Source: Pseudomonadota bacterium
GTDB taxonomy: Bacteria; Bdellovibrionota_F; JAHFAK01; JBDREC01
Length of the DNA: 57,863 bases
Direction: 5' to 3'
Assembly: GCA_043820105.1 (NCBI GenBank)
Contig: JBDREC010000034.1
Location: forward strand, 1-57,863
Under the pieces are notes generated by a model. That model made no database searches, was not told the origin of the DNA, and saw nothing but the letters and a program-made list of their open reading frames with translations. Made by a program: the position numbers and the translations under genes. Of this stretch, positions 4,237-31,076 are shown piece by piece. The number at the start of each line of letters is the position of its first letter. Position 1 is the stretch's first letter.

Positions 4237-4285
4237 ATATTTGAAATTATGCCCATGATTTTTAACTTAATTTGTTGTCTAATAA

Positions 4286-5959
4286 ATGGAAGCATTTAAA
4301 AGAATATATATTTTAATAAAGCCTTTTGAAAAGAAGATACTGTTCTATTATTTCTGCAGTATTATTATGATTATATTCTATGTTCCAATACCTATGTTTA
4401 ATAAATATCTAATTGATGATGTGTTGATTAAAAAAGATTTTAATCAACTATTATTTATTTTAATATTAATCTTAGCCTTTAAAATAATTTCAAGCCTTTT
4501 AAATAGTCTTAATTGTTACAAACTAGATAAACTGGCGGTAGCTATAAATATTTATACAAGAAAAAAACTTTTGTCTAGAATCTTAAGCATAAATAATAAT
4601 GTTTATAGAGCTTACAGTGGAGGTGACCTGATAGCACGGTTTGACAATGGGCAAGATGCAGTTATTTCATTTATTGAAGTTATTTTATCTAATATTGTAA
4701 ATCTAATTTATGTAATTGTTTTGGTTTTCATTCTATCTTATTTAAACCTTAAGCTATTTATGCTTGGAATGATATTGCTACCTTTGGAAGTCATTTTATC
4801 TATAAAAACAAAAGTTTTATTTTCTAAGTATATACCAAATATAGAAGCTAATAATGGGAAATGCAAAAATATTCTGCAAAAAATAATATACAATTTGCCG
4901 GAAATTAAAGGTTTTGGTGGATCTAAATATTCTTATAATAAATATAGTCTCATATTAGGTGAGTCAGGAAAATATAGCCTGATCATGGATAAAAAAACAA
5001 ATTTGCTTAACCTCTACAAAGGAATTGTCAAAGCACTGGCTATTGCTATTTACGGGTATTTTGGATGGTCTAGTGTAATTAATAATCAAATGACTTTAGG
5101 AGCTTTTGTTGCTTTTACAACTTATCTTGGATTTATCTATGGACCTGTTAAGGGCCTTTTGGATTTTATAAGTAAAATAGAAGGAGTAAAAATAAAGGCG
5201 GAGCGTTATTTTGAGCTATTAGCTTACAATAAAACCAGAGAATCAAAAGTTGGGTATTTTTGCTCTTCCGGAAACCTTAACTTAATAAGAATTTCTGAAC
5301 TTTCATTTGGATATAATAAAAATGAAATGATTTTTTCAAACCTCAATATGGATTTGCATTTAAACGGAATCACGGTAATCTGGGGTAAAAGTGGTATTGG
5401 AAAAACAACTTTATTGAATTTGATATATGGCGGCTTAAAACCTGAATCTGGAAAGATTGAATTCTTAACAAAAGAAAATAAATTGTGCTTTAATAAACCC
5501 TGTGATCAAATTTCTTATGTTACCCAAAAAGCAGTATTATTGCCAGCGTCCATTTATGAAAACATAACACTAAGCAGTACTATAAATAATGAAAAGATTG
5601 ATAAATGTAAAATTGCTTTAGAAAAAGCGGCTTGTGAATTTGTTAATGAGCTAAAAGATGGGATTTTTACTGAATATGATAAAAGTGTGGATATCTTCTC
5701 GCAAGGTGAAATACAAAGAATAAGTCTTGCAAGGATTTTTTACAACTCTAAAAAAATAATTTTGATTGATGAGCCAACAAATAATCTAGACTCAGTCCTT
5801 TCAAATAACTTAATTGCAAATATTAAGCAATCATCATTGAGTTTTCCTGTTATTATGGTCACTCATAATCAGGATCTTTTAAAATATGCCGATAGGATAA
5901 TTGAAATTAAGAAAAATGGGGTTATAAGTGTTTATAAAAATCCAAACAGGGGTCTTTAA
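4286..5959 (+). CDS. ABC exporter (TMD+NBD), no C39 peptidase domain
   Basis: N-terminal TM helices, Walker A GKSGIGKTT, signature FSQGE, Walker B IILIDE, H-loop VTH. Confidence 0.92.
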   Translation: MEAFKRIYILIKPFEKKILFYYFCSIIMIIFYVPIPMFNKYLIDDVLIKKDFNQLLFILILILAFKIISSLLNSLNCYKLDKLAVAINIYTRKKLLSRILSINNNVYRAYSGGDLIARFDNGQDAVISFIEVILSNIVNLIYVIVLVFILSYLNLKLFMLGMILLPLEVILSIKTKVLFSKYIPNIEANNGKCKNILQKIIYNLPEIKGFGGSKYSYNKYSLILGESGKYSLIMDKKTNLLNLYKGIVKALAIAIYGYFGWSSVINNQMTLGAFVAFTTYLGFIYGPVKGLLDFISKIEGVKIKAERYFELLAYNKTRESKVGYFCSSGNLNLIRISELSFGYNKNEMIFSNLNMDLHLNGITVIWGKSGIGKTTLLNLIYGGLKPESGKIEFLTKENKLCFNKPCDQISYVTQKAVLLPASIYENITLSSTINNEKIDKCKIALEKAACEFVNELKDGIFTEYDKSVDIFSQGEIQRISLARIFYNSKKIILIDEPTNNLDSVLSNNLIANIKQSSLSFPVIMVTHNQDLLKYADRIIEIKKNGVISVYKNPNRGL

Positions 5960-7581: not shown

Positions 7582-8499
7582 TTATTCGTAATAATCGTTT
7601 TTCCAGTAATTAGATTCAAAAGGTGATCTTCTCTCAATAGTCTTTTTACCAGGAATCGGACAACTTTGTGCAGCTTTCCATGAGTATCCAAAATAATCAT
7701 AGGAATGATATAGCATTGGACATGCTGCTTTTAAATGAGTTACACTATCATAATCATTAACCTTCATTCCAATTATGGACCAGTCGCCACATAAATAACC
7801 AAAAAATACCGCGCCATTTCTGAATTTTTTTAAAGACCTTTTATCATCAATTATCAAATATTTATCTGATAGATGCTCTTCGTATGAAACATTAAACTCA
7901 CTGTGACTAAATTTGGAGTTCAACTTTCCACCACTAATACTTTCCACTGTTATTCCAGCCTCTAGATCTGGATTTTGATCATCATCCTTTTCATATCCAC
8001 CCAGAAGCCAATATGCTCCATTTCTCCAGCTTTGGTGGAAACTGCTTCCTTTACATAGGCATCTCCAATTAAAAGTTTCCAGGTAAAAGCTTTTATCCAA
8101 CTTAGCAAAGGCAATCCCTGAATAACTATCAATATATCTTTGAGTTATTTTTGCACCACCATGAGGACTTGGTTTCTCATCATTTGAATCTGGCCAAAAA
8201 TATTTTCCTCCTCTATCTTCTATGCATTTTGTTGGCACTATTATCAAATCACTATTAATTAAAGCTGCAGAACATATAGGTGTTGATGAACTTATATTGG
8301 AGCCAGTTACTTTTCCTATTGCTTCCACTGGAGGATCATCTTCAATATACAAATTTTCCGTAATTGTCATTGCATCAAAGTTTGAATCCATGGAAAACGA
8401 TCTCCTGGGCATATCATTCATTGGACAAGGGTCAGCCCATACAAGGCTTAAAAACGCCAAGTTAAAATATATTGTTGTAAATAAATTTATTCTTCTCAT
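7582..8499 (-). CDS. Secreted trypsin-fold protein with degenerate catalytic motifs
   Basis: Signal peptide; AIGKV..CSAALINSDLIIVPTKCI in place of TAAHC; no GDSG. Confidence 0.55.
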   Translation of the reverse strand: MRRINLFTTIYFNLAFLSLVWADPCPMNDMPRRSFSMDSNFDAMTITENLYIEDDPPVEAIGKVTGSNISSSTPICSAALINSDLIIVPTKCIEDRGGKYFWPDSNDEKPSPHGGAKITQRYIDSYSGIAFAKLDKSFYLETFNWRCLCKGSSFHQSWRNGAYWLLGGYEKDDDQNPDLEAGITVESISGGKLNSKFSHSEFNVSYEEHLSDKYLIIDDKRSLKKFRNGAVFFGYLCGDWSIIGMKVNDYDSVTHLKAACPMLYHSYDYFGYSWKAAQSCPIPGKKTIERRSPFESNYWKNDYYE

Positions 8500-8518
8500 T
8501 AAAGCCTCCTATTTTTTA

Positions 8519-9748
8519 TTAATTATAACTCAATGTAATTTTATGAATTTGATTATTTGAATTATCTAAAAAAACAATATACGGTTTGCATATGTTCTTT
8601 TCTTCCTCCGCATTTAAACTAAAAATAATCTTTTTAGATAAATCTATATCTTTTTCAAGTTTAACCTCATCGCTAACGCAAGAGTTTAATATGAACTCTA
8701 TTTTTTTTATATTTGGAAGTGGTTGGATTGAACCATAATTAGTAATATTTGCTTCTTGAAATTTTGATATGATTAATTTTTCAGCTTCCTCATTTGATAA
8801 TATTACATTTAGGGTTTGCTCATTATATTCGTATATTATAGATGGTTCATAAAAATAAACATCATCAGTAGTATTAATATTCAAATCATTTGTTCCTGAT
8901 TGATATAAGTTGATATTTTCTGAAAACAACGTATCTTCTTTAAGATATGTTTTAAACAAATTATGATCTTGGATTGTGTAATCTATCTTGCTTATTTCAA
9001 ATTCCTTTGAATTTGATGGATAAAATACATAGTAGCGATCATTAAAACCCTCAATTGCAAATATATTTCTAATAATATTCTGCTTTTGAACTTCAATATG
9101 TGTTGAAATAATTTTTGCCAAATCATAAGATATAAGATCTTTCAGAGCCTCACTTGAATTGCGCAGCAATGATTCCAGTGTAAATTCATCTTGATCTTTT
9201 AAATCTACAACAAATTCAGAATTAGAAAATTCGCTAAGACCATATAAATTCTCCTCAAAATATTCTAGATCAAACAGAACTTCATTTTCTGTAACTTTAT
9301 AAATTCCATAGATATTTGCATCATATATAAGACTATTTGATTCATACTCTTCAATATAAAGATCAAAATCCATTTCTTTTTTATTTAAATAGATAAAGGA
9401 AATAATAATGTTTTCATTATTACTATTTATCTCTTCACTTGCTTTATAGAACACATGATTATTTTCCTCAACTAATGCAAGTTGATAAGCTAAAAAATCA
9501 TTCCCGGGTGCTTCTGGTTCTTCTTTTTCTTCAATTTGATCGCCTTCAGGAGTACTTTCTTCTTCAGGATCATTTGCTTCCAATTTTTCTTCATTAAGAT
9601 CACTGGGTCCTTCGTAAAAAATAATTTGCTTTTTTTCAGATGACTGTTTTTGCCTTACATTTTTTATTTTCATGGACTCATTACAATTAATAAAGAGAAC
9701 CAAGAAAATTAAAAAACTAAAATAAATACCTATTTGTTTTATGGTCAT
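8519..9748 (-). CDS. Acidic putative lipoprotein, paralog of 28798..30663
   Basis: Lipoprotein-like signal (FINC); DDVYFYEP motif shared with DDVYYYKP. Confidence 0.6.
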   Translation of the reverse strand: MTIKQIGIYFSFLIFLVLFINCNESMKIKNVRQKQSSEKKQIIFYEGPSDLNEEKLEANDPEEESTPEGDQIEEKEEPEAPGNDFLAYQLALVEENNHVFYKASEEINSNNENIIISFIYLNKKEMDFDLYIEEYESNSLIYDANIYGIYKVTENEVLFDLEYFEENLYGLSEFSNSEFVVDLKDQDEFTLESLLRNSSEALKDLISYDLAKIISTHIEVQKQNIIRNIFAIEGFNDRYYVFYPSNSKEFEISKIDYTIQDHNLFKTYLKEDTLFSENINLYQSGTNDLNINTTDDVYFYEPSIIYEYNEQTLNVILSNEEAEKLIISKFQEANITNYGSIQPLPNIKKIEFILNSCVSDEVKLEKDIDLSKKIIFSLNAEEEKNICKPYIVFLDNSNNQIHKITLSYN

Positions 9749-13054: not shown

Positions 13055-13232
13055 ACACAAAAAAAGCTTAAGACATGTATTATGTTTATTTAAAAGGATG
13101 GTATGAATTTATGACTCAAGGAAAACTATTTATCTTATGTAAATTTGAATTCAAACTAAAGACTAAATTCGAAATAAAATTCGAAAATCGGATTTTTATT
13201 TCCAAATATGAAATCTTAAACAAGGAGCTATC

Positions 13233-14135
13233 ATGTTATTACAAACAATGTTGAACGAAATTAAATCAACTCATATCTTATCTACAAAATCAATTTCTTT
13301 TGCTTTTTTAACTTTTATCTTTATTTCCTTAATTGCTTTTCCATGCTTTGCTAAATGGCATTATTATAAGTGGCCATACAAGGGAAAATTACAAAGTTTT
13401 TCCTTTGATTCACTTGACGATGATTACTGTTATAAAAATTATAGATCCATATCCGTAAATCATCAAGGTGATAATTATCCCAAGTTTGTCTTAGAAGATC
13501 CATGCTATGCCAATATGGAAATAATTGCAGGAAGATTAATTGAAATAACCAGAACCCTTGGTTTAAGTAAGCTAGAGTCTGTAAACTATATTATTAGTTG
13601 GGTAAGATCAACAGTTTATAATTATGATACTGACACAAAATATCTCAGTGATTATGTACGATATCCTTTTGAGTTAATTTTAGATAAAACTGGTGATTGC
13701 GAGGATTTTGCTGTTCTCTTTGCTTCCATTATGAGCCATTGGTGTATTAGAACAAAATTAGTATTTTTAAATACAGCAGCTGGATACCATGTTGCAAACA
13801 TTATCAATACTTCAGATTTTCCAGATACTTTTCTTCAAACAATAATTACGATACATGGAGATAAGTATTCATATGTCGAAGCAACTGGTTGTAAGAAGGA
13901 AGATCAGCCATGTGGAATTATAAATGTTGGTGACTTACCAGCTTTTAATGGTCAAGTAGTTAAGGAAAGTGATTTGTTAAACTTTTATGATCTGCCTTTA
14001 GTATGCAATTATGATCCAAATGTTTCATATAATTCTGGCAATCAGATGAATTCTTCGCAAAGCTCAACTGTAGAAGTAGAATCAGATTGGATAATTGAAG
14101 ATGGCTTATTTAAAATATATAGACCAGATATCTAG
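13233..14135 (+). CDS. Secreted transglutaminase-like cysteine protease
   Basis: YPFE..GDCEDFA catalytic Cys, downstream HVA, YVEAT. Confidence 0.8.
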   Translation: MLLQTMLNEIKSTHILSTKSISFAFLTFIFISLIAFPCFAKWHYYKWPYKGKLQSFSFDSLDDDYCYKNYRSISVNHQGDNYPKFVLEDPCYANMEIIAGRLIEITRTLGLSKLESVNYIISWVRSTVYNYDTDTKYLSDYVRYPFELILDKTGDCEDFAVLFASIMSHWCIRTKLVFLNTAAGYHVANIINTSDFPDTFLQTIITIHGDKYSYVEATGCKKEDQPCGIINVGDLPAFNGQVVKESDLLNFYDLPLVCNYDPNVSYNSGNQMNSSQSSTVEVESDWIIEDGLFKIYRPDI

Positions 14136-14166
14136 AGCTATTTTATTTATAAATATACATCTTTTT

Positions 14167-14182
14167 TGGTACATTTTTTGCA
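14167..14182 (+). promoter_or_regulatory. sigma54 promoter TGGTACATTTTTTGCA
   Basis: GG-N10-GC upstream of 14267. Confidence 0.75.
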
Positions 14183-14266
14183 AATCAATTTCGCAAATCT
14201 TGATACAACAGGTTTTGGTTTTGAGTTTTCATTAAGGCGAATACTTAATTTATAAGGAGCAATAAC

Positions 14267-15139
14267 ATGACAAAGGTAATAATAAAAATAAACCTATTCA
14301 TTTTAATAATCAGTTATTTTGCTTTAGCGATGCACGCAACAGTTGAAATCAAAGGAAGTAAAAGAATTATAAGACCTATAGATTATGATTTATCGTTTAC
14401 ACTAAACTCAAAGAGATATTATTTTGAAATTGAATCAGATATTGATATCTTTTATGAAAAATTGCATCCCTTAAGTGGAGTTCCTGGATATAATGTTGCC
14501 TGGAGGGATTATTTTAATACTCATGTTGGTGATGATATGGACTTAAATGAAGCTGATTATTTTGAAGATATTGTTGATCAAATCATTGAACAAACGGGTG
14601 GTAACATCAAATTGAATTTTCTTGTTGCTCAAAAAATTGTAAGTGAGCTTGTTGAAAAAGAATACAGAAAATTAAACAATAAAGCTCATTTTTATTTACC
14701 ATGGGAGCTTTTATTTATTGGAATTAAAACAGAGGAAGAAGGAGCAATATTATTAGGAGCCCTATTTTCTTTTTTATGTTTTGAAATATACTTTGTATAT
14801 ATAGATAGTGACTGGCATTTGGCTGTAGTCCCTGAATCTAAATGTTCAAATAACACATATGCTCTTGATGATATAATTGGCAAAGAAGATCTCTATATTT
14901 TCTCTGGCAAGGATCTTTTAAAGGCAGATTTAGAAAACAGCCCTCTTATAGATATTAGAGAAGTTTGTATGGGCAAAAAAAAATCAGGCCCTTCAAAAAT
15001 TCCTTTTCAGTGTAATAGTATAAGTCATTCAAATAACTTTGGATCAATACAAACGTATTATTCTTCAGAACCAGATGAACTTATAATATTTGGAATTAAA
15101 GACGGTACATATAGACCAACTGGATATTATATAAGATAA
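14267..15139 (+). CDS. Secreted transglutaminase-like paralog lacking the catalytic Cys
   Basis: LPWELLFIGIKTEEEGAILLGALF..HLAV aligns with YPFELILDKTGDCEDFAVLFASIM..HVA. Confidence 0.55.
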   Translation: MTKVIIKINLFILIISYFALAMHATVEIKGSKRIIRPIDYDLSFTLNSKRYYFEIESDIDIFYEKLHPLSGVPGYNVAWRDYFNTHVGDDMDLNEADYFEDIVDQIIEQTGGNIKLNFLVAQKIVSELVEKEYRKLNNKAHFYLPWELLFIGIKTEEEGAILLGALFSFLCFEIYFVYIDSDWHLAVVPESKCSNNTYALDDIIGKEDLYIFSGKDLLKADLENSPLIDIREVCMGKKKSGPSKIPFQCNSISHSNNFGSIQTYYSSEPDELIIFGIKDGTYRPTGYYIR

Positions 15140-15215
15140 TATTACTTTACTCTCAAAAAGTTTAAATATGATTCAGCCATTGTATTTTGCTTTATTAGGA
15201 ATATTACAAATTTAA

Positions 15216-15231
15216 TGGCATATTTTTTGCA
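15216..15231 (+). promoter_or_regulatory. sigma54 promoter TGGCATATTTTTTGCA
   Basis: Near-consensus GG-N10-GC upstream of 15289. Confidence 0.85.
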
Positions 15232-15288
15232 GTAAGATTTTTTTAATATTAATTAGACCTTTATTAACTTTTATACAAGGAGTGAAAT

Positions 15289-15489
15289 ATGATCTATAAA
15301 TTTTGTTTTAAAACTTTAATTATTCCCATTTTTCTTGTCTTAGCGATTTCTAGCTCACTTTTTTCTTTGAGTGATAAAAAGAAATGTGAGCTCATGGGTT
15401 ACAATGATTTAATAAAACATCAAGTTTTACCTATTACCTCGTTTAATCCTGCTAACCCGGAAATATATAACATAACTAAACAAAGCTGA
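15289..15489 (+). CDS. Short, possibly truncated secreted VLP(L/I)SEF-family protein
   Basis: AAGGAG RBS, signal peptide, HQVLPITSFNPANPEI, then an early stop. Confidence 0.5.
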   Translation: MIYKFCFKTLIIPIFLVLAISSSLFSLSDKKKCELMGYNDLIKHQVLPITSFNPANPEIYNITKQS

Positions 15490-15559
15490 GTGGAAAGAAT
15501 AATTTCAATTTCGAACTATTTTTTTTCTATAATGATTTTTTTGTAATAAAGGAGTATTT

Positions 15560-16042
15560 ATGTTTACTAATAAAACTAATAAATTAATAAGCGGAATATT
15601 TATTTTAATTATTTTATCTATGAATTTAATGGCATCAACCCAAAAGAATTATTTAGTCCAAGATTCTGATAATTTTGATATAGAAATTTTACCGATTTCA
15701 GAATTTAGAGATAATGACAAAAACATTGTCGACATTAAAGAGGAATATAATGAAAAATATGGAGAGTACCTTAATGTTCTTTACAATGATACAAGAAGAG
15801 TTTTCTATATACATGATGAATTATTTTATTCATATGATCCTGCAAATGAAGGTAGTGCCTGCAAGGTTTGCTTGGAATATGTTATGTTGAAAGTATGCGA
15901 CTTTTTTATTGAAACACTCATCGATTATTGTAAAAAATGGCTTTTCCCTGAAAAGAAAATGGAATGCACGATGAGAAGATGTGAATATGATTATGATGAT
16001 AATTGGGTATGTAAATGCCTTGAATGGAATTATGGAGAATAG
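15560..16042 (+). CDS. Secreted VLP(L/I)SEF-family protein with Cys-rich C-terminus
   Basis: AAGGAG RBS, signal peptide, ILPISEFRDND, 8 C-terminal Cys. Confidence 0.65.
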   Translation: MFTNKTNKLISGIFILIILSMNLMASTQKNYLVQDSDNFDIEILPISEFRDNDKNIVDIKEEYNEKYGEYLNVLYNDTRRVFYIHDELFYSYDPANEGSACKVCLEYVMLKVCDFFIETLIDYCKKWLFPEKKMECTMRRCEYDYDDNWVCKCLEWNYGE

Positions 16043-16800
16043 CTCATAATTGGAATCAAACTAGAATTATGATTTTAACTAAAACATCTGTTTATTTATT
16101 ATTTATAGCCTTTTTATTCATTTCTACTAATATTTATTCTAAATATATTTCTTTAAATTTTATTAATAATAATCAATCCCAAATGTTTGGAATTAACCAA
16201 CAAGATCATTTTCCTGAACTATATTTTCATTCTTTTGCCGTTGGATATATAGAACGCTTAGGAAATTTTATAGGAACTGCTTTTCTTATCTCTAATGATG
16301 GTCTAATGTTAACAAGTGCCCATGTTATTATTAAGGCGTGTTATCTTGATAATTGCAATGAATCTCGGGTTATACTAAAAAACTACCTTGGAATAAATCA
16401 GTATTATAATTTTAACATTATTTCAAAAAATCTGGATCTAGACTATGCAATAATTAAAATTAAAGGAGATTATCTAGACTTACCAGAACCACTAGAATTG
16501 TATAATACATATGATATACTTGCTCAAGAAAGTGAAGTGTTTTTGTTAAGTTTTTATTTTAATAAAAATACCGAGGAAATTTATCTTATTTATTCCCATG
16601 GCTATCTAAATGATTCTAGTTCAATCGAAGATCTTAAATACAAACCTTCTTATAGCTACAGTGCAAATACACTACCAGGATTTTCAGGAGCACCCGTTTT
16701 ATGCAAGATTAATGAAGAATATATAGTCATAGCAATCCATTGGGGTAGTGATGAATCCGCCAATTTGGGCATTCCAATTTTTTTAATAGATTTCAACTAA
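16024..16800 (+). CDS. Secreted trypsin-like serine protease (true start may be ATG 16069)
   Basis: GTAFLI, LTSAHV (His), DYA (Asp), GFSGAPV (Ser). Confidence 0.85.
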   Translation: MELWRIAHNWNQTRIMILTKTSVYLLFIAFLFISTNIYSKYISLNFINNNQSQMFGINQQDHFPELYFHSFAVGYIERLGNFIGTAFLISNDGLMLTSAHVIIKACYLDNCNESRVILKNYLGINQYYNFNIISKNLDLDYAIIKIKGDYLDLPEPLELYNTYDILAQESEVFLLSFYFNKNTEEIYLIYSHGYLNDSSSIEDLKYKPSYSYSANTLPGFSGAPVLCKINEEYIVIAIHWGSDESANLGIPIFLIDFN

Positions 16801-16990
16801 TTTTAAGATTAAAGATCGGACCCAGACCCTAAATTATTTAATTATATTTTCCTATATTGGAATTTATTTTCCAAAAATCAAATTGAACATGGATCCATAG
16901 AGGCTTTAATTGAATAAAATATATTTAGAAAATATTATTAATGCGTGTCTATGGACTTTTCATTTTTACAGGAGATTTTTAAAGTTAATT

Positions 16991-18379
16991 CTAAAGACTA
17001 ATAGCGTATTTTTTCATTTTTCTAAAAACTGTGGTCGTTGGAAGACTCACTTTTTCAGCGACAGCTTTAATTGTTTTTTCTTTTTCTGCAAGTTTTAATA
17101 GCATAATATTCTCAATATTTGACAAGTAATTCTCATAACCAAACTTTTTTATATCATCTTCATTAATTACATTTCCAATAAACTCAAAACTTAAATCATT
17201 TAAATCATTCTTATTGAATATAAATTTAGGATTAATATGATCAATAGTTATAGTTTCATCATTTTTTGATTTTTGACATAAATATTTAACAGTATCTTTC
17301 AATTCACGAACATTTCCTTCGCTCCATTCATAATTTAATATCATTGTAAGAATCTCAGCACTATATTTTTTTTCATAACCTTCAAATTCTTTAATATAAT
17401 ATTTCACAATTGGAAGAATGTCTTCCTTTCTATCTCTTAAAGGGGGGATAATAACTTTGCATTGTGATATCCTTGAATAGAGATCCCTTCTAAATTCATT
17501 TTTCTTTATCATATTATGAAGATTTTTATTAGTGGCGGAAATAACTCTACACTCAGCATATCTGGTCATTGTTTCTCCAAGTCGTCTATACTCATAACTA
17601 TCAAGATAAACGAGCAATTCAGCTTGGCACTCAAGGTTCAAATCACCAATCTCATCAAGAAATAAATCACCGCCTTTAGCAACTTCAACTAGACCATTCT
17701 TATCAATATCAGCGCTTGTAAAAGCTCCCTTTTTATGCCCAAACATCTCATCCTGCAACCTTTCTTTTGATAAACCGGCACAGTTTATTCTGACAAAGGG
17801 CCTGTCGCCTGTACTCTTTAAAACCTGATTTGCATACTTAGCAATTGGAGTCTTGCCTACTCCTGTTTCACCTTCGATTAAAAGGTTCATTTCTCCTATG
17901 CTTTTAATTTCATCTAGAGCTTGAAGAATCTCTTTGTTTTGGGTTATAATTTCACTTTCACTCTTAAAGTTTTTTTTAAGACTTTCAAAAGTTCTTTCTT
18001 TAATATTTCTTTTTAAGGCATTTTCAATTCTAAAGCGGAGCTCTTCATTAAGGTTAAAATTAGACTTTGATATATAGTCATAGGCGCCAATCTTCATGGA
18101 CTCAACAATGACATCAACTGAACTTGAATCTGAAAGCATAACAACTGGCAATGAAGAATCATTTTTTTTGATTTCTTTCAAAAGATCAATGCCATTTTTA
18201 TTTTTTTCATAATTGATATCTAAAACTGCTAAATGAATTATATTATTATTGAACTCTGCAAGTCCTGATTCAAAGTCACTTGCTTCAATAATATTATAAG
18301 CTTTCATTAAAATTGCAGCAATAGTTGTTCTAAATATTATATCATCGTCAACTAATAAAACATTTGTACTCTTACTCAT
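16991..18379 (-). CDS. NtrC-family sigma54-dependent response regulator (REC-AAA+-HTH)
   Basis: LLVDDD/LDI receiver, GETGVGKT, GAFTSA, LFLDEI, FRRDLYSR, C-terminal HTH. Confidence 0.93.
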   Translation of the reverse strand: MSKSTNVLLVDDDIIFRTTIAAILMKAYNIIEASDFESGLAEFNNNIIHLAVLDINYEKNKNGIDLLKEIKKNDSSLPVVMLSDSSSVDVIVESMKIGAYDYISKSNFNLNEELRFRIENALKRNIKERTFESLKKNFKSESEIITQNKEILQALDEIKSIGEMNLLIEGETGVGKTPIAKYANQVLKSTGDRPFVRINCAGLSKERLQDEMFGHKKGAFTSADIDKNGLVEVAKGGDLFLDEIGDLNLECQAELLVYLDSYEYRRLGETMTRYAECRVISATNKNLHNMIKKNEFRRDLYSRISQCKVIIPPLRDRKEDILPIVKYYIKEFEGYEKKYSAEILTMILNYEWSEGNVRELKDTVKYLCQKSKNDETITIDHINPKFIFNKNDLNDLSFEFIGNVINEDDIKKFGYENYLSNIENIMLLKLAEKEKTIKAVAEKVSLPTTTVFRKMKKYAISL

Positions 18380-18412
18380 TGTATTAGACTCCAAATTTAT
18401 TAAACTTATTAT

Positions 18413-21400
18413 CTATATATTAATACTTTTAAACAACTTTTTGTTTTTTTGAATATAACATCCTAATTTCTCGACTGCACCGTTTCTTTCATTTTCCTTA
18501 AGGAAATATTTTGAATAATCATTGCTTAAGATTTTATCTATAAAGCTATATTCGTCCTCAATCTCAAGTATTACATCTTTATTTTCTTCTATTTTGTTTT
18601 CAATAATATAATTTCTAAATTCTTCAAGTTGTACTTGCTTATCCTCAAGAAGCTTTTTCATGTTTTTCACCTGTGTTTCAACAAACCAATTGATATTATC
18701 TTTTTCCATATTTTCAATTATTGAAGTAGCGGAATTAAGCATAACATACGCGTTCATAATCGGTTTATTTAAATCATGACAATATTTCCCCAGGGCTTCT
18801 TTATTCTTTGATTCATCAATCTTATTACTTTTCTTAATATTCCTAAGTTCCTTTAAAAGCAGCTCAGATAAGGTTGCTTTGTCAATGTTTGGTGGAAAGT
18901 ATCCTGTGATATTTAACCTTTCAGCCTTGGCCTTTAACAAGTCTTTATCTGTGTCTGAAGATAAATAAAGCAAGGCAGAAGGATTTTTATCTTTTAAAAT
19001 AGCTAACAATTCTTCTCCAAGCATATTATCATTAACACCAAAAATATTATCACTAATTACGATATCAGGTTTTATTTTCTCCGCTTTATCTAAAAGATCC
19101 TGTGGATGTTCAAACTTGTATATTTTGTGTTCATAATCTCTTAATATATCTTTAAGGATTGAGGCAAAAGCTTCCCGAATTATCATGTTATCATCAGCGA
19201 TAAAACAGATCAGCGGACTATCATTTTGAATATTGATTGCAGGATACTGTCCCTTTGTACTGTCTTCCATAGACAAGCTCTTATGTAAAAAATCAACTAG
19301 CTGCTCAATAGATAGGGGTTTACTGGCATAAGATTTAGCCCCCAGATCATAGGCTTTTTGAATTTCGTGGTCTAAATACCTGTTTGAATGGATAAGTGAA
19401 GTTACATTCATCTTATCATCGCGTGTCAGCCTTAAAAAATCATAGCCATCCTTATCTTCATTAAGATCAATATCCACAATAGCATAAGAAATATTTTCTT
19501 TTTTAATCAGTTCAATCGCTTCATCTACATTATCTGCGTCATATAGGGTGATTAGCCTATTAAGAATTTCACTGTTTTTTATTATATTTCTAACAAAAGC
19601 GCGATAAAGGGTTTCGTCCTCCAAAAGCACAATCTTGATTTTTTCATGCTGTGATAAAAGCTCCAACTTTTCATCAAGTTTATCCTGATCTGGCTCATAT
19701 TTAACAAAAAGAATTTCATCAGTGCTTTTAGGAAGAATGCTTATGTTGTGCTTATCTTCAACTTCTGAGGCTGGAATGGTAATTACGAATTCAACTCCTG
19801 TTTTGCCATCATCCACTGGACTATTCGGTGGTTTCAATCCTTCCCGCCGTACGCTGTACTCTGTACGCTGCACGCAATTCCTGGCCTCAATTTTACCGCC
19901 ATGAAGATTCACAATTTTATTAGCAGAAGCAAGTCCTAAGCCAGTACCTCTTTTATTCCCTTTAGTAAAAAACGATTCAAAAAGATTTGGAATATCATCT
20001 TCTTTAAATGCTGGGCCATTGTTGCCAATAATTATCTCGATAAATTTATGCCCATCTATCTTTTTATCACAGGTTTTAAACCAAATAGTATAGCTGTATT
20101 CTTTTTTCGGAAGACTGTTTTTAGCTTGTGGCGGGCTGCTTGTAGCCTGATGGCTGGCTAAGGCTTCAATTCCATTCCCAATAACGTTACTAAAAACTCT
20201 TGCCATCCTTTTATCATCCATCAGAGCTTGAAATTTGTTCTCAAGTTTATAATTAAATTCAAGGGAAATATCTTTATAAGCTTGAGCTTCCTGCCTTATA
20301 GAAAAATCAAGTAAAGCAGAAATTGACTCAGGGCTTGTTTCAAGCTTTACCTCTCTTGAAAAATCAAGGATGTCAGAGATCATGGATTCAACGTGATTAA
20401 TAGTTTGATTAACTGTATTTTTAGCATGGCTTAAAAAACTAGGATTATTCTTATAATTTTCCATCATAGCTAGCATGGATTTCATGCTTGTAAATGGTTT
20501 GCGAATGTCATGGGCCAGCATTGACGTTGTTTGACCAATTGCTACAAGTCGGGTATTTTTTTTAATCTGTGATTGATACGCATTTAATTCATTTGACATT
20601 CTTTCAAGCCCATTTGCTAAATATTGAAAGTCATCGCCAGTATGAATATCTAAATCAATATTAAAATTGCCTAATGCAACCATTTGTATAGCATCACCTA
20701 TTTTTTTTACTGGAAGCAAATATTTTCTTATTAAAATATATAGAGTACAAGAGATACCCGAAAACAGTAGAATTAATGCAATAATTTGTCTTATAGATAT
20801 TGATTTTATATATCCTAAAGAAGTTTTAATTATTCGATGCCCCATGCTAGAAATAGTTTCCTCTTTTGTAAGAAGAAGTAAATACATATTAAAATCAGAA
20901 ATTAATGAACTCGCAGCATACATTTTATAATGAGATAAATGTGAAAATGATATTGAACCATTTGAAAATTTTTCTAACTCTACTCGGATATTATGTTTCT
21001 CTAAATTTTCTATATTAATTTTTGATATCTTGCCTTTTGGAACGCCAAAATTTCTAGTTAGATCACCATTTTCTGCATAAATATCTTGGTTATTGTCAAT
21101 AATAGCAATTTCACTATTAATTTTTTTTGCCATCTGTGATAGCTCTTCAATGAATTTATCAATTCTTATATCAATCGAAAGAACTCCAATAAAAACATCC
21201 TGAACATAGATAGGTTGCATTGTACTAATTAATATAAAATCACTCATCTCTGCTTTATAAATACTAGACCAAAGAAAGCGTCTTTCCGGATTTCTATCTT
21301 GGTTTGCCTGTTTGTAAAATGGCAATTCGTTAAGTTCAAAATCGGGATTTATTAAACCCTTTTCTATCACCATTTTCATATCAGCTTTTGGATACATCCT

Positions 21401-21958
21401 AATTATGTTTCCTTCAAAATTCAAATAAGTTAGATGATAAAAATTATCGGATTGAATAATTTCTTTCATCATACCTTCTAAATCTTTTGAAAGATATACT
21501 AATTTCGTTGAAAAACTACTCCATTTTACTTTTTTACCAGTAAATACAAATGACTGATCCTCAAGAGGGCTAGTAAAACTCATTCCATTTTCATGAAAAG
21601 TAAAAGAGCTTCTAAATTTATCAAGTTGATTTCTCGAAATATTGGCATTATTAGTAATAATATCTACAAATGCACTAGATAATAGTCTTGTATTTATTTT
21701 TGCGTGATGCAATCTTTCTTTTAAAATATTTGCTAAATTATGTGCCGCTGCCTCAAAATTAATCTTCGCGATTCTATCAGACTCCCTCTTTTCTATTATA
21801 GATAAATCACTTGAAAATATTCCATAAAAATACGATTGTATTAAAAAAAGCAATATACTATATGTAAAAAAAATAACAATAAAACACACTAGTATTTTTT
21901 TAAACAATAAATTTCTCGATTGAATTCTTTTCATATTATTTTTCTCAACATTAAACAA
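18413..21958 (-). CDS. Membrane hybrid histidine kinase (Cache-HAMP-HisKA-HATPase-REC-REC plus C-terminal H-box)
   Basis: Two TM helices around a Cache-like domain (WSSIY..GVLSIDI), AHDIRKP, N/G boxes (GTGLGL), LLEDE and IADDN receivers. Confidence 0.92.
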   Translation of the reverse strand: MFNVEKNNMKRIQSRNLLFKKILVCFIVIFFTYSILLFLIQSYFYGIFSSDLSIIEKRESDRIAKINFEAAAHNLANILKERLHHAKINTRLLSSAFVDIITNNANISRNQLDKFRSSFTFHENGMSFTSPLEDQSFVFTGKKVKWSSFSTKLVYLSKDLEGMMKEIIQSDNFYHLTYLNFEGNIIRMYPKADMKMVIEKGLINPDFELNELPFYKQANQDRNPERRFLWSSIYKAEMSDFILISTMQPIYVQDVFIGVLSIDIRIDKFIEELSQMAKKINSEIAIIDNNQDIYAENGDLTRNFGVPKGKISKINIENLEKHNIRVELEKFSNGSISFSHLSHYKMYAASSLISDFNMYLLLLTKEETISSMGHRIIKTSLGYIKSISIRQIIALILLFSGISCTLYILIRKYLLPVKKIGDAIQMVALGNFNIDLDIHTGDDFQYLANGLERMSNELNAYQSQIKKNTRLVAIGQTTSMLAHDIRKPFTSMKSMLAMMENYKNNPSFLSHAKNTVNQTINHVESMISDILDFSREVKLETSPESISALLDFSIRQEAQAYKDISLEFNYKLENKFQALMDDKRMARVFSNVIGNGIEALASHQATSSPPQAKNSLPKKEYSYTIWFKTCDKKIDGHKFIEIIIGNNGPAFKEDDIPNLFESFFTKGNKRGTGLGLASANKIVNLHGGKIEARNCVQRTEYSVRREGLKPPNSPVDDGKTGVEFVITIPASEVEDKHNISILPKSTDEILFVKYEPDQDKLDEKLELLSQHEKIKIVLLEDETLYRAFVRNIIKNSEILNRLITLYDADNVDEAIELIKKENISYAIVDIDLNEDKDGYDFLRLTRDDKMNVTSLIHSNRYLDHEIQKAYDLGAKSYASKPLSIEQLVDFLHKSLSMEDSTKGQYPAINIQNDSPLICFIADDNMIIREAFASILKDILRDYEHKIYKFEHPQDLLDKAEKIKPDIVISDNIFGVNDNMLGEELLAILKDKNPSALLYLSSDTDKDLLKAKAERLNITGYFPPNIDKATLSELLLKELRNIKKSNKIDESKNKEALGKYCHDLNKPIMNAYVMLNSATSIIENMEKDNINWFVETQVKNMKKLLEDKQVQLEEFRNYIIENKIEENKDVILEIEDEYSFIDKILSNDYSKYFLKENERNGAVEKLGCYIQKNKKLFKSINI

Positions 21959-21985
21959 TGGCTTTCTCGATGTTAAATCAAAAAA

Positions 21986-22873
21986 CTAATGCCTTTTATC
22001 AGAGTCCAGAAGTAATGGGGGAATTATATTTAAACATAGTTGACATATAGAAGAACAATCTGCAGATAGTTCATTGGGTCTAATCCCTAACATTGCTATT
22101 AATTCATTAAAATTATATCTATTCAATAAATTAAAAAATCTAGATTTAATGTATTGTTTTACATTTTTCTTAATAATTCGATTATTCATACTTGAAAAAC
22201 CACAATGCAAAAGCGAAGAACAACAATGTGTGACACCATATGAAGGTAAATATACTAGATAAGAAAGACGAGGACATTTTTTATTTAATACTTCCGATTC
22301 AAAAGAGTAATATTTATAATCTAAATGATTTTTTTTCGCATTACCTATAGGTAATGTTCTCTGAAATTCAAATTCTACATCAAATTCCTTTTCATACTTA
22401 TAATTATCTGCAAGATCTTCAGGAGAGGCGATTGTTGAAATTAGTGAAATATTAATATCCTTATCATTGCAGTATAAAACCAGATTTTTAACATTATCAA
22501 TATTAATGAACCTAGCATGATATTTATCATACGATACTATTACCTTTTTTAAATTTGGTATATTTCCAATGACCTTGTAACAAGAATCGAAAGAATTGGA
22601 AAACCAAGCATTTGTGGTTATTTCAAAGTTTATATTTGGTAATTCTCTAAGAATAGATTTCACTAAACAATGTATTGTTGAAAGGTTAAGAGTAGGTTCC
22701 CCACCAGTTAAATGCACAGTATCAGCATTTAAGTCCTTCAATATATTGATCACATTTTGTGTTTCACTTTTCGCTAATCCAGGAAATTGCACATCTGTAC
22801 ACATACAATGTGCACATTGTATATTGCAATTAGGAGTAACAAACACACCAAGTTTTTTATTAAATAATTCCAT
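21986..22873 (-). CDS. YydG/EpeE-like radical SAM peptide epimerase
   Basis: CNIQCAHC, TGGE, TNAWF, SYDKYHARF, IGNAK, CP..CCS and SSICQLC match the motif order recalled for B. subtilis YydG. Confidence 0.72.
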   Translation of the reverse strand: MELFNKKLGVFVTPNCNIQCAHCMCTDVQFPGLAKSETQNVINILKDLNADTVHLTGGEPTLNLSTIHCLVKSILRELPNINFEITTNAWFSNSFDSCYKVIGNIPNLKKVIVSYDKYHARFINIDNVKNLVLYCNDKDINISLISTIASPEDLADNYKYEKEFDVEFEFQRTLPIGNAKKNHLDYKYYSFESEVLNKKCPRLSYLVYLPSYGVTHCCSSLLHCGFSSMNNRIIKKNVKQYIKSRFFNLLNRYNFNELIAMLGIRPNELSADCSSICQLCLNIIPPLLLDSDKRH

Positions 22874-22911
22874 GTAAAAATAGATAATTTTTATATTAAG
22901 CTATATGAAAA

Positions 22912-23103
22912 TTATCTAGCCCATCCGTTAATTTGGGACTCCATGTTCTTGATAGAATCTTGATTTACTAATTCTGCCCACTTTAGAGTTACATCTAAAG
23001 TATCATCTTTCATACTGCTCACATGACACATTGCATTTGCGTAGGAATAAAAACCCATTGAAACAAACAACAATGCAAGTTTTTTTCTTTTACATATCTT
23101 CAT
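22912..23103 (-). CDS. 63-aa peptide with Sec-like signal; putative rSAM substrate
   Basis: TGGAGG RBS; basic N-terminus, hydrophobic core, ANA cleavage site; ends 38 bp upstream of the rSAM gene. Confidence 0.65.
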   Translation of the reverse strand: MKICKRKKLALLFVSMGFYSYANAMCHVSSMKDDTLDVTLKWAELVNQDSIKNMESQINGWAR

Positions 23104-23208
23104 AAAATGACCTCCAATTAAATTACAAATGTATTAATACTTCATATTTATTATAATATTTTAAAATAATTCAATAAGAATAAAGTTGTGTATATTATAT
23201 TATTCCTC

Positions 23209-25671
23209 TCATATCTTTTTTCTAAATAAAACCGCTTCCTCCCCTCCGTCGTAATGTTTTTTGGATACCTTATCCATTTCATACCCCTGTGACATCCAGA
23301 ATCTTATTGCTTTTTCATTCCCAGACCATGTCCATAAATAAAGACTGTCAAGACCTTGTTTAATAATAACACCTTCCAGTAGACTGTATAAAAATTTACC
23401 AATCCCCTTATTACTTTCACTTGATAGAACACCTAAATGTACTATTTCTGACTCATTTTCATCATTATCTATTGCGTATGATATAAAAGCTATAGGTTCA
23501 TTTTTATATTTCAATATAAAAAAGTTTATTCCTTTAGCCATATCTTTTTTTACAATGTCAAAAGTTAGAGCATATTGTGGTAAGGGATGTCCACATTCAG
23601 CACCTACAGCTATAATTTCTTCAATATCAGAAGAAGTAGATGCATGTACTAATTTAAGTAATCCATCTTCAAATGAAACTGGAGATAATGGGTCAATTGC
23701 TTGAATAGCATCGTCCATAAATTCATCCGATATTTCAAATTCATTTGGTTTTATATTCTCATTTCCGTCCATATCACCTCCATTCTTTCCATTATTTTCA
23801 ATTGATGCCCTTATTTCTAAAGGAAATATCCTTTCCATATTTTCCTGATCATGTATGATATTTCGCTCTATCTCAATAATTATCGGTTTTGGTTCATTTG
23901 AATCTATATTCGGATTAGGAAAAACTATATATTCTATTTCTTCTTCGGAATACTGCCCAGGAAAATAGATATCGCTGTACCCAGGTTCTTCACCAAAATG
24001 AAAGGGCTCTTCATCTGGAACTTCAGCAGGCGTAAATAATGGATATTCATAAGGCAATTCATACGGATAGTCAAATTCAATTTCACTCCATTGATCATGG
24101 CTTAATTCATAAGGATTTTCATAACCTAGTGGGTAATAGTAAGAACCAAAATCATTTTCATATTCAGCTTCAAATTCTTCTAACCCTGGATAATATGGTA
24201 AATATGGCATCTCAATTGGTCGTTCAAACTCAACCTCTATTTCAGTTTCCTTATCTTGGTCTAAATCACCATCTTCTTTAGGTTCTTCAGGATTAATAGT
24301 TGGCATTCCTTCAGGATCCTCTCCTGGAAAAAATATCTCAAGATCAGGATTTTGGATGTGGAGTATGTCCTCTGGCAGATCTGTAATTATTAAAGTTGAA
24401 ATTCCAGCTGGGATAGTTATTTCCAAAGGCGAAAAGACAGGATTTAAAACTGTTTGAATCGCTTCATTATCAACTACCAGCAAAAGGTGTTCCTGTTGAA
24501 CGATTGGCTGTGATACGGAGAACGGTTGTTGATCCAGGGCTAGTTGCCCTTGCCCAACATAATTTACAGTTGATCTGCCCATTCTGGCTGGTGCTCCAGT
24601 ATATCTATTACTTGAACCAGATGAATAGCCAGAACTATACCCAGCTGGTCTGGATCCACCTCCGTTATATAATGTTAAATTAGGTCTTTGTGGATTTGAA
24701 TTAGAGGAAGGTTGCTTGCTTGCGGGTAATGAACTTATTCTTAATAATTTTAGCGCTGCACCAAAGGCTACAAAAGTAGCTGCACCAAAACCTGCTGAAA
24801 TTAAACTATGTATGGCTAATTCCAAACCGTGTAATTCTTCAACCAAGACTCCATCCAGGGCACCATAAGCTCCGCCAGTGATCGCTCCAATTAATGCGTA
24901 TCTTGCTAAAAGCTGAACAGTTGTCATTTCAGCAGCTGAAGCAAGAAAAATGCTTCCAAGTCCCACAGCTCCTAGAAATAAAGCGGGAACAGCAACAACA
25001 GCCAGGCAATCTCTTTGGGCCTGTTTGTATGCTTTTTGTTCCCAAATTGTATAAATGTCCCTTCTTATTTGCTCAAAAATAGCTTTATCATAGGCATTTT
25101 TATAATCCTGCCAGGCTGAAGTTTTATAAATTGGATCATAAACCATTCCACAATTGCTCCAATAATTAGGTGGTCCCGATCCCTCCATTGTTATAAAGCG
25201 ATGCACTTCCCATTTCTTTCTAAGAAAGCATGCTTCATTATAGATAGTTTTAGCAGGATTTTCCTTTCTTTGGATTTCATATTCAGCAGGTGTTGGCAAG
25301 AAAGGATCGACAAGAGAAAATAAAAGCTGGAAATGTTTAAATCCTAAGCTGTTTCGATCAACTTCAACATCTTTGGATCCACTTGATGATTTATAATAAT
25401 CAAAGTCATCTGTTTTTTGAATCTCTTCAATTAATCTTAAAGATAAAAAACTATTAGCACCAAAGTCATTTAAAACTTCTATTGGATTTTTTGATGGCCT
25501 GGGATGAGTATTATTATATTGGCTCAAGATTTGATGATTTAAATGAGCGAAAACTTTGCTCATGTCATCTACTTTTACAAGAACTGTTTGAGGATTTTTT
25601 TCTTTGGAGAAAGAAAGAGAATTAATGAATAGAAACATTAACGAAAATACGATTATTTTCTTTAAAGCCAT
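23209..25671 (-). CDS. Large secreted protein with Gly/Ala-rich hydrophobic helices, acidic Pro/Glu/Tyr linker and C-terminal GNAT domain
   Basis: Signal peptide; GAITGGAYGA segment; GNAT motifs HLGV..NKGIGK and NEKAIRFWMSQGY. Confidence 0.7.
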   Translation of the reverse strand: MALKKIIVFSLMFLFINSLSFSKEKNPQTVLVKVDDMSKVFAHLNHQILSQYNNTHPRPSKNPIEVLNDFGANSFLSLRLIEEIQKTDDFDYYKSSSGSKDVEVDRNSLGFKHFQLLFSLVDPFLPTPAEYEIQRKENPAKTIYNEACFLRKKWEVHRFITMEGSGPPNYWSNCGMVYDPIYKTSAWQDYKNAYDKAIFEQIRRDIYTIWEQKAYKQAQRDCLAVVAVPALFLGAVGLGSIFLASAAEMTTVQLLARYALIGAITGGAYGALDGVLVEELHGLELAIHSLISAGFGAATFVAFGAALKLLRISSLPASKQPSSNSNPQRPNLTLYNGGGSRPAGYSSGYSSGSSNRYTGAPARMGRSTVNYVGQGQLALDQQPFSVSQPIVQQEHLLLVVDNEAIQTVLNPVFSPLEITIPAGISTLIITDLPEDILHIQNPDLEIFFPGEDPEGMPTINPEEPKEDGDLDQDKETEIEVEFERPIEMPYLPYYPGLEEFEAEYENDFGSYYYPLGYENPYELSHDQWSEIEFDYPYELPYEYPLFTPAEVPDEEPFHFGEEPGYSDIYFPGQYSEEEIEYIVFPNPNIDSNEPKPIIIEIERNIIHDQENMERIFPLEIRASIENNGKNGGDMDGNENIKPNEFEISDEFMDDAIQAIDPLSPVSFEDGLLKLVHASTSSDIEEIIAVGAECGHPLPQYALTFDIVKKDMAKGINFFILKYKNEPIAFISYAIDNDENESEIVHLGVLSSESNKGIGKFLYSLLEGVIIKQGLDSLYLWTWSGNEKAIRFWMSQGYEMDKVSKKHYDGGEEAVLFRKKI

Positions 25672-25859
25672 CTACCAACCCGTTAATTACGCTTGAAATA
25701 ATATGTCCAAACCCTTAGCCAAGAATTTACCGTATACACGACAAGGCACTTTGCGTCAATAATATTCTTGTAGTTTAATATACAAAATCATCTATTCCGC
25801 AGTCAAACTATGAAATGAATGATTTTATTAATTTTGCAACTAATTAATATTGGATGATT

Positions 25860-25875
25860 AGCAACTTTTATGCCA
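25860..25875 (-). promoter_or_regulatory. sigma54 promoter TGGCATAAAAGTTGCT
   Basis: Near-consensus GG-N10-GC upstream of 25671. Confidence 0.85.
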
Positions 25876-25927
25876 AATCAGGATTTATGTAATTTCAACT
25901 TGTTATACTTTTCACAATTGAATTATT

Positions 25928-25961
25928 TTCCAATAATGGAGAATTTATTCCAAAAATGGAA
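25928..25961. promoter_or_regulatory. Tandem palindromic putative enhancer (UAS) TTCCAATAATGGAG / TTCCAAAAATGGAA
   Basis: Two 14-bp dyads 20 bp apart, ~80-110 bp upstream of the predicted sigma54 start site; recurs elsewhere. Confidence 0.6.
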
Positions 25962-26043
25962 TTTCAAATTTGGAATAAAAGCATATTTTAGGTTTTGGAT
26001 GCTTTTCATTATAATGGCACCATGAAAACAATTAAATTTTAAT

Positions 26044-30768: not shown

Positions 30769-31076
30769 AATTTATGCTATAATGATTTCAATGAGATACG
30801 CTTTTTACAATATAAATAAATTAGTAAATTTATATTTTTTCTCTATTTCTGGAATTTTCTTTCAAAAATTAAAATAATGTAAATAATAGTCTCGCTGAAT
30901 TTGAGAAGCAATTTAGTGATCCAATGTGGACACAAGAATTAGTAGGCCAGGAAAACAACATCCTTTTAATGGGCTTAAGAGAAGAATAAATTTCATTTTT
31001 GGTATTATATTTTCCATATCTCGTAACATCTTTTCTTTCTAAAGCATAACTTATTGTTTTTATATGCAGCCTAAAT

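Follow-up and report, generated by a model that had tools for sequence, protein, structure and literature searches.

A candidate peptide-signaling cassette joining an EpeE-like radical SAM enzyme and a conserved precursor to a sensor kinase in three bacterial phyla

Introduction

Epipeptide loci, which combine genes for a precursor peptide, the radical S-adenosylmethionine (rSAM) enzyme EpeE, a protease and an ABC transporter, are described in two reports as widespread in Bacillota and restricted to that phylum (PMC13012085, PMC8326336). Here we analyze a cluster of minus-strand genes in a 57,863-nt contig (JBDREC010000034.1, hereafter the window) from a bacterium that GTDB places in Bdellovibrionota_F, where a 63-aa peptide and an EpeE-like rSAM enzyme are encoded beside a hybrid sensor kinase and a sigma54-dependent response regulator. 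Sequence comparison supports homology of the enzyme to EpeE, conservation of the precursor, and a gene content and order that recur across phyla. We give roughly even credence to the idea that this cassette is an autoregulatory circuit built on a ribosomally made peptide with post-translational modification (RiPP) that would be modified, exported and sensed by the kinase, with sigma54-dependent output.

Compared with epeXEPAB of Bacillus subtilis, the cassette has a similar rSAM enzyme of ~300 aa, with a CX3CX2C motif, a probable second cluster and a CC pair, and its precursor is likewise encoded directly upstream. It differs in lacking the EpeP protease and the EpeAB transporter, in not keeping Asp210 of EpeE, in having a GNAT protein, a binding protein, a kinase and a sigma54 activator as partners, and in occurring in hosts outside Bacillota. 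The precursor has a signal-peptide-like N-terminus, whereas EPE has a cleaved leader and ABC export.

Modified-peptide pheromones are textbook knowledge in Gram-positive bacteria and rare in diderms. Operons of the ComQXPA, Agr and NisRK type hold precursor, modifying enzyme, sensor kinase and response regulator together, and the cassette shares this one-operon layout, with a candidate self-induction promoter at the head of the cluster in the window. However, the parts are without homology to those systems: the cassette combines rSAM chemistry, a sigma54 AAA+ activator and a diderm envelope, and would sense via a binding protein or Cache domain instead of a polytopic sensor. The Vibrio LuxP-LuxQ-LuxU-LuxO pathway also joins a periplasmic binding protein, a hybrid kinase and a sigma54-dependent regulator, and against the LuxO model the regulator of the window reaches 218 bits, below the model's cut-off of 800. 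Unlike that pathway, the cassette has a binding protein of family 5 (peptide/nickel type) rather than LuxP type, its presumed ligand is a ribosomal peptide from the same operon, and in the window a Cache domain is present without a binding protein. Maturases of the GNAT type occur in clusters for acylated RiPPs (lipolanthines, selidamides); a GNAT-fold gene within a ribosomal-peptide cluster is the likeness here, but the cassette GNATs are very divergent, with one of ten above the Pfam cut-off.

A search of full-text literature, supplements not covered, found no description of the cassette. An EpeE-like enzyme and a conserved precursor joined to a periplasmic sensor and kinase in three phyla make a directly testable hypothesis. 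If true, EpeE-type chemistry would be seen here for the first time beyond Bacillota, and a near-unsampled phylum would share with Elusimicrobiota and Bdellovibrionota the first quorum-type circuit based on a RiPP.

Results and Discussion

Layout of the cluster

The peptide gene (22912-23103, minus strand, 63 aa, ATG start) is followed on the same strand by genes for the rSAM enzyme (21986-22873, 295 aa), the kinase (18413-21958, 1181 aa, TTG start) and the regulator (16991-18394, 467 aa, TTG start). Intergenic gaps are 38, 27 and 18 nt, and the list of open reading frames (ORFs) bears out the four close-set minus-strand genes of the initial annotation. The limit of four genes proved too narrow, since the upstream neighbor of the peptide gene, encoding an 820-aa protein with a C-terminal GNAT domain (23209-25671, minus), and the promoter region before it belong to the cluster too, extending it to ~16991-25979. 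As had been proposed, neither a protease nor an ABC transporter gene lies within the cluster, judged from the ORF list and Pfam.

An rSAM enzyme related to EpeE

The enzyme consists of Radical_SAM and Fer4_12 domains with no extra domain in its 295 aa (Pfam), and the motifs by which it had been likened to YydG/EpeE (TGGE, TNAWF, SYDKYH, CP..CCS, SSICQLC) are all present in the translation. The YydG family epimerase model TIGR04078 is its best and only full-length NCBIfam match (60.4 bits, E 1.9e-16), and EpeE/YydG is its sole PDB sequence match (3 distinct sequences, E 1.6e-9 to 4.6e-8, residues 3-282, phmmer), at ~20% identity to EpeE. When an AlphaFold2 model based on an alignment of 82 relatives (pLDDT 96.1) was searched with Foldseek, EpeE chains occupied ranks 1-9 (E ~1e-14, TM 0.64-0.72), followed at rank 10 by a sactipeptide synthase (E 5e-9). 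By all three measures the enzyme does not cluster away from EpeE, and the kinship claimed for it stands. Membership in the YydG family does not, because the score of 60 bits lies below the curated cut-off of 300 bits, which indicates a sister family rather than a member of the YydG equivalog.

The extent of this family was gauged by a profile search of 1.84 billion representatives, which returned 105 clusters at E<=1e-30 and, with the threshold relaxed to E<=1e-10, 1280. TIGR04078 was matched by 82/82 family members (best E 5e-26), and a true YydG member (P0118) scored 396 bits on that model versus 113 bits on the window-family profile. A quick maximum-likelihood tree of 45 rows, which omitted a split second copy from the same genome and 37 of the 82 members of the alignment, gathered all cassette-context enzymes into one group (support 82-94) with true YydG outside. 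The window enzyme fell in a starred clade with P0002, P0003, P0005, P0007, P0008, P0009, P0011 and P0010, and this clade adjoins that of Elusimicrobiota (support 80). On these sequence relationships, the window enzyme is placed in a sister family of EpeE with at least 105 clusters.

Residues of the presumed active site were compared using EpeE numbering (PDB chain numbering minus 25, verified on the D210A and C223A entries). The CX3CX2C motif at C16/C20/C23 aligns with EpeE C14, C18 and C21, and C16, C20, C23, G57-G58-E59, C200, C277 and C280 are invariant across 82 full-length family members, with the CC pair C217/C218 kept in at least 90% of them. In the phmmer alignment, C217 and C218 correspond to EpeE C222 and C223, and C200, C277 and C280 to C206, C289 and C292, making C200, C217, C277 and C280 the probable ligands of a second [4Fe-4S] cluster. 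C223 of EpeE is the H-atom donor that completes epimerization (PMC13012085), and C218 of the window enzyme is the aligned counterpart of this CC-motif Cys.

About 19 of 150 listed relatives (for example P0094, P0101, P0103, P0107 and P0113), and besides them four Bdellovibrionota loci (L028, at 3978-5519, and L082-L084), have the rSAM enzyme fused to an extra C-terminal domain of ~200 aa without a Pfam match. A GNAT identity for the fusion domain of these ~500-aa enzymes was considered: Pfam matched 0/10, and hmmsearch and hhalign comparisons with cassette GNATs were insignificant, although the last 17 columns of the domain resemble the GNAT end motif.

A conserved precursor peptide

The 63-aa precursor has a K-rich N-terminus, a hydrophobic stretch, a conserved motif (VSMGFYSYANAMCHVSS) and a variable tail of 30 residues, and a GGAGG ribosome-binding site lies 7 nt 5' of its ATG. 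Peptides from other genomes, 21 in all, gave a 38-residue motif profile (consensus LVsaGLfssenAmqYVnsLsd) that was run against the 24,688 ORFs of at least 30 aa in the window's genome. The window ORF ranked first (E 0.0026), and second (E 0.013) was the ORF upstream of the split rSAM copy on another contig, C26; both had been held out of the profile, and the next match was at E 0.44. Motif segments were chosen by eye, which inflates the scores of the 21 training peptides and not the rank of the held-out ORFs. With a profile from nine Elusimicrobiota peptides alone, the window ORF again ranked first of 24,688 (E 0.11). In four orthologue pairs the peptide has a dN/dS of 0.08-0.26, and the selection and profile data mark the ORF as a genuine gene. 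The locus therefore has the general trait of RiPP clusters, a conserved short precursor gene beside a modifying enzyme. None of the families in NCBIfam release 20 matches the peptide, and the enzyme has no model there beyond the weak YydG match; BLASTP of the window peptide against the C26 peptide found no significant similarity.

In the window, C26, Elusimicrobiota and most Bdellovibrionota, the motif overlaps the N-terminal K-rich/hydrophobic stretch, which ends in a small-x-Ala site and resembles a Sec signal peptide. Four loci place the motif differently: L075 and L081 have a separate signal peptide ahead of it, and in L071 and L072 it lies inside larger proteins. It is thus more than a signal peptide, and may be what the enzyme recognizes, what is modified or what is sensed. 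Some 25 residues beyond the motif, 7/20 aligned peptides have a hydrophobic run ending in [C/T/A]-S-G. The epimerized fragment of EpeX is given as WILGSGH (PMC13012085), and it resembles this h-h-h-[C/T/A]-S-G site.

The cassette recurs in three phyla

Relatives were drawn from GTDB genome contigs, JGI metagenomes, one Elusimicrobiota genome with three cassettes and a Bdellovibrionota sample. The GTDB/JGI locus search was run with a 4-row rSAM alignment, and loci were annotated over widened stretches by BLASTP against reference proteins with Pfam-checked domains. Synteny was counted for 29 rSAM genes outside the window's genome, after duplicates had been dropped (L030 = L022, L032 close to L024, L087 = L025, and L045-L050). 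The rSAM family occurs in 16 of 401 sampled Bdellovibrionota genomes and in 0 of the other 3 genomes of the window's phylum, which has 4 genomes in the GTDB-based set.

Directly upstream of the rSAM gene, 21/29 loci have a motif-bearing ORF and 6/29 another small ORF with a signal peptide (L028, L035, L080, L083, L084, L085); one (L031a) has neither, and one (L082) meets a contig end and could not be assessed. Conservation of the peptide ORF beside enzyme homologs, a premise of the initial annotation, is thus seen both in this placement and in the dN/dS values above. A family-5 binding-protein gene follows in 25/29 (1 without, 3 unassessable), and a kinase follows the binding protein in 19/19 loci with enough DNA. 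The order in Elusimicrobiota and Bdellovibrionota is peptide, rSAM, (divergent GNAT or S12 hydrolase), family-5 binding protein, kinase, and neighboring genes often overlap by 4-7 nt. Sigma54 activators are nearby in five Elusimicrobiota loci (L022, L024, L026, L027, L088). The cassette thus recurs in three distant phyla: Elusimicrobiota, Bdellovibrionota and the phylum of the window. Of the peptide-rSAM-kinase-regulator synteny that had been anticipated, the first three parts hold across phyla, and among relatives the activator was seen beside them in Elusimicrobiota.

This conservation bears on one alternative, that adjacency says nothing about signaling because the rSAM enzyme has another substrate (a protein, a lipid or a small molecule) and an unrelated secreted protein is the product of the small ORF. 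A predicted complex of enzyme and peptide with two [4Fe-4S] clusters and SAM scored 0.02, which weighs neither way; the enzyme is under the family cut-off, and a paralogue of the kinase on contig C43 lies beside a different, B12-type rSAM enzyme. However, the order of peptide, rSAM, binding protein and kinase is kept over three phyla with overlapping genes, and the motif profile singles out, among 24,688 ORFs, exactly the two that lie upstream of two rSAM genes. We consider this alternative very improbable.

Sensor, kinase and regulator

The window kinase has an MCP-like_PDC_1 domain (33.2 bits vs a cut-off of 27; dCache_1 is sub-threshold, 23.8 vs 45), HAMP (sub-threshold), HisKA, HATPase_c and two REC domains (Pfam/NCBIfam), and inspection by eye found a second H-box-like motif, CHDLNKP, in its C-terminal part. 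Among the kinase paralogues of this genome, only the window copy has the Cache sensor part. A family-5 binding-protein gene is absent from the window (Pfam), where the kinase has a periplasmic PDC/Cache domain at residues ~60-360 instead. The window therefore holds a variant cassette, with no binding protein, a Cache domain on the kinase and a GNAT domain at the end of the upstream 820-aa gene. Sensing through a Cache domain was part of the first proposal; the usual sensor partner in relatives is the family-5 binding protein, for which the Cache domain is the window's substitute.

The regulator comprises REC (65 bits), Sigma54_activat (168 bits), AAA lid and HTH_50 (25.7 vs 27) domains, and its GAFTGA loop reads GAFTSA. 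Its NCBIfam matches are ntrC (233 bits) and the LuxO model already mentioned, and no equivalog cut-off was reached. The genome has rpoN on contig C8. REC, AAA+ and HTH domains together with a sigma54 gene identify the protein, at the level of its domains, as an NtrC-type sigma54-dependent response regulator.

No EpeP-type protease or EpeAB-type ABC transporter was found in the window cluster or in the cassettes of relatives, where the single transporter gene is one for an MFS 'secretion effector' in L022. These surroundings matter for another reading, which we judge unlikely: the peptide would serve mainly for killing rather than communication, as a toxin or competition factor that acts on membranes like an epipeptide, and kinase and regulator would control its production or protect the producer. 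Lantibiotic autoinduction and the LiaRS response to EPE in B. subtilis would be models for such a system, its hosts include predatory Bdellovibrionota, and the window is rich in secreted hydrolase-like genes; the MFS gene of L022 would also fit. EPE, the closest characterized relative, has antimicrobial activity and sets off a two-component system of the envelope-stress type (PMC8326336). On the other side, neither immunity genes nor ABC transporter or protease genes were found, and the N-terminal motif is kept across phyla, whereas toxins usually diverge. The binding-protein gene overlaps the kinase gene by 4-7 nt in L022 and L028, which suggests ligand sensing over damage sensing.

GNAT and S12 components

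The 820-aa protein has an N-terminal signal-like segment, hydrophobic central segments, an acidic/proline-rich linker and a C-terminal RimI/Naa50-like GNAT domain at residues ~705-813 (Acetyltransf_1 46.9 bits; rimI E 1.2e-8; Naa50 and PaiA in the PDB, E 2e-3). In ten loci a 204-278-aa protein is encoded between the rSAM enzyme and the binding protein; one of these ten is above the Pfam GNAT cut-off and six more have weak GNAT matches. A profile of the ten had 21 PDB matches, 18 of them GNAT acetyltransferases (best PaiA, E 1.9e-4). GNAT genes are clear in the L022, L078 and C26 cassettes, and BLASTP between the window and C26 GNATs found no significant similarity. At the same position between rSAM and binding protein, L022-L027, L081 and L087 encode a hydrolase of the S12 beta-lactamase fold without a signal peptide. 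S12 enzymes include D-stereospecific peptidases, and as a lead, such a hydrolase would suit a peptide with D-residues.

Promoter, palindromes and hairpin

A sigma54-type -24/-12 element (TGGCATAAAAGTTGCT, 25860-25875, minus strand, 1 mismatch to TGGCAC-N5-TTGCW) occupies intergenic DNA at the head of the cluster, ~190 nt before the 820-aa gene. Two adjoining palindromes of the ATTCCA-N5-GGAAT type (25944-25979, no strand assigned), one exact and one with 1 mismatch, lie ~70-100 nt upstream of this promoter-like element and provide a lead to a candidate binding site for the activator. At <=2 mismatches the palindrome occurs 15 times in the window versus 7.9 expected, a count reached by 5/100 shuffles. 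Weaker copies (1-2 mismatches) were seen at 30990-31005, 16848-16863 and 13199-13214, the first of them between divergent sigma54-like promoters at 30753 (minus) and 31077 (plus). Between the peptide stop and the rSAM start, a hairpin followed by a U-run (22881-22918, minus) contains a 16-nt inverted repeat that is 94% complementary and folds at -9.9 kcal/mol (z -2.44; 0/200 shuffles as good). It is possibly a partial terminator that would favor the peptide transcript over that of the enzyme.

It had also been suggested that the circuit switches on a neighboring sigma54 secretome. Seven sigma54-like sites (<=1 mismatch) occur in the window, all intergenic and upstream of genes, and some of these genes encode transglutaminase-like and trypsin-like secreted proteins. 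The genome (3.8 Mb, GC ~29%) has 282 such sites, or 4.3 expected per window length, and nothing ties the seven promoters to this activator in particular; this part of the proposal is weak. A strict sigma54 pattern placed a site directly upstream of the peptide gene in one of 11 relatives' loci, L023, whereas the intergenic regions of the window and C26 gave no site. A sigma70 promoter scan gave 54 sites versus 52.9 expected and is uninformative in AT-rich DNA.

A riboswitch upstream of the Elusimicrobiota operons

In Elusimicrobiota, a 2'-dG-II aptamer (Rfam RF03165) lies ~90 nt upstream of the precursor gene with 84-85 bits versus a gathering score of 60 (L024 5631-5701; L027 5631-5701; L031 5602-5672; L033 2512-2582), and it was also aligned in L023, L025 and L026; Rfam found no match in the window. 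A terminator hairpin follows the aptamer. GGGAAA is common to the 5' arm of this hairpin and the 3' strand of P1, so the operon should be turned ON when ligand binds. A 2017 survey counts 12 members of the 2'-dG-II class, all metagenomic and with no assignable taxon (PMC5473149). This rare class gains a host phylum, Elusimicrobiota, and a downstream operon. In L024 (1034-2203) and L027 (4047-5102), a 351-389-aa Sigma54_DBD protein, which may be a dedicated RpoN-like factor, is encoded between a divergent activator gene and the riboswitch-peptide operon.

A riboswitch is an internal-metabolite input, and as such it would suit a private signal, in which the peptide acts on its own kinase as a small regulator in the membrane or periplasm, and its modification by an enzyme that depends on oxygen and iron-sulfur reports an internal state (Fe-S, SAM, redox) instead of carrying a message between cells. 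MgrB and SafA are models for small regulators of this kind. The part of the peptide conserved in most members is a hydrophobic N-terminal segment, possibly a membrane anchor, and no exporter is encoded, both in keeping with a private regulator. Yet the motif stands after a separate signal peptide in L075 and L081 and in a soluble, charged context in L071 and L072, and partnership with a soluble binding protein better fits a diffusible ligand; we regard a private regulator as quite unlikely.

A proposed signaling circuit

For the RiPP-based circuit, we infer a chemistry, an export route, a kinase ligand and target promoters as follows. In the cytoplasm, the EpeE-like enzyme would act on the 63-aa precursor, most likely inverting the C-alpha of at least one residue with Cys218 donating the H atom; acylation by the GNAT domain of the 820-aa protein may be a further change. 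Binding proteins have signal or lipoprotein-type N-termini, and the rSAM, GNAT and S12 proteins have none (read from the sequences), so a peptide modified inside has to pass the inner membrane afterwards. With no dedicated exporter encoded, Sec export via the peptide's own signal-peptide-like N-terminus would be the simplest route. The peptide would be sensed in the periplasm or outside the cell, by the Cache/PDC domain here and by the co-translated family-5 binding protein in most relatives, and the hybrid kinase would pass phosphate to the NtrC-type activator. This activator could then switch on sigma54 promoters, plausibly including that of its own cluster head; with a sigma54 activator as the last step of the phosphorelay and a promoter of sigma54-like type at the head of the cluster, self-induction is plausible. 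More tentatively, and with rather less than even confidence, the cassettes may represent a widespread class of diderm peptide pheromones that are Sec-exported, carry rSAM-derived D-residues and perhaps a GNAT-derived acyl group, are read by OppA-like or Cache sensors, and are riboswitch-gated in Elusimicrobiota.

Several results weigh against such a circuit. With the enzyme under the YydG cut-off and Ser204 as the counterpart of EpeE Asp210, in a column that varies across the family, a different reaction is possible; Asp210 is the position mutated in PDB 8AI6. The window peptide matches the family motif weakly, at the E values of 0.0026 and 0.11 given above, and its tail is without the h-h-h-[C/T/A]-S-G site. 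A signal peptidase cut after the conserved Ala would split the most conserved motif, and the motif does not keep one setting, following a separate signal peptide in L075 and L081 and lying inside proteins of 312-317 aa in L071 and L072. The synteny counts leave out the window's own rSAM subclade (P0002-P0011), and the stretches retrieved around 15 Bdellovibrionota loci contained no sigma54 activator. The window is without the family-5 binding protein that is otherwise universal in the cassette, its kinase is one of at least 8 family members encoded in the genome (several at contig ends), and sigma54-like sites are just 1.6-fold denser in the window than in the genome.

Further modules and neighboring genes

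The initial annotation missed a decayed second copy on the 10.4-kb contig C26 (L021, 2117-7190, minus strand), which encodes a 71-aa peptide, rSAM enzyme, SBP_bac_5 protein, GNAT and kinase. Its peptide gene has a GGAGG site, but the rSAM gene is split by a 14-nt tandem duplication and the kinase ends at 572 aa. Window and C26 kinases are 56% identical over 370 core residues, and with six further paralogues the window kinase core shares 45-57% identity. An AbiEii/AbiEi toxin-antitoxin pair is located beside this cassette at 7956-9679.

A third rSAM-linked module on C43 (L090, 314-8781) comprises a SAM methyltransferase, a B12-binding rSAM enzyme of 657 aa, an SBP_bac_5 protein (214 bits), a hybrid kinase 52% identical to that of the window, and a sigma54 activator whose ORF stops prematurely at 278 aa. 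A precursor ORF was not identified in this module. The kinase-activator family is thus paired with two kinds of rSAM enzyme. Further kinase paralogues on C48, C99, C7, C73 and C103 are 35-57% identical over the cytoplasmic part, and as four of these are at contig ends, the repeated family probably breaks the assembly.

Multiple rSAM or cassette copies were also seen in L031 (1914-2867 and 5992-6843), in G064 (3 cassettes) and in G363 (5 matches), which fits diversifying signal/sensor pairs.

Beside the window cluster, genes for signal-peptide proteins occupy 13233-16800 on the plus strand, some behind sigma54-like sites at 14167 and 15216. Their products are a transglutaminase-like protein, two proteins without a family, a Cys-rich 160-aa protein and a trypsin-like peptidase, whose gene (16024-16800) converges from the opposite strand on the regulator gene.

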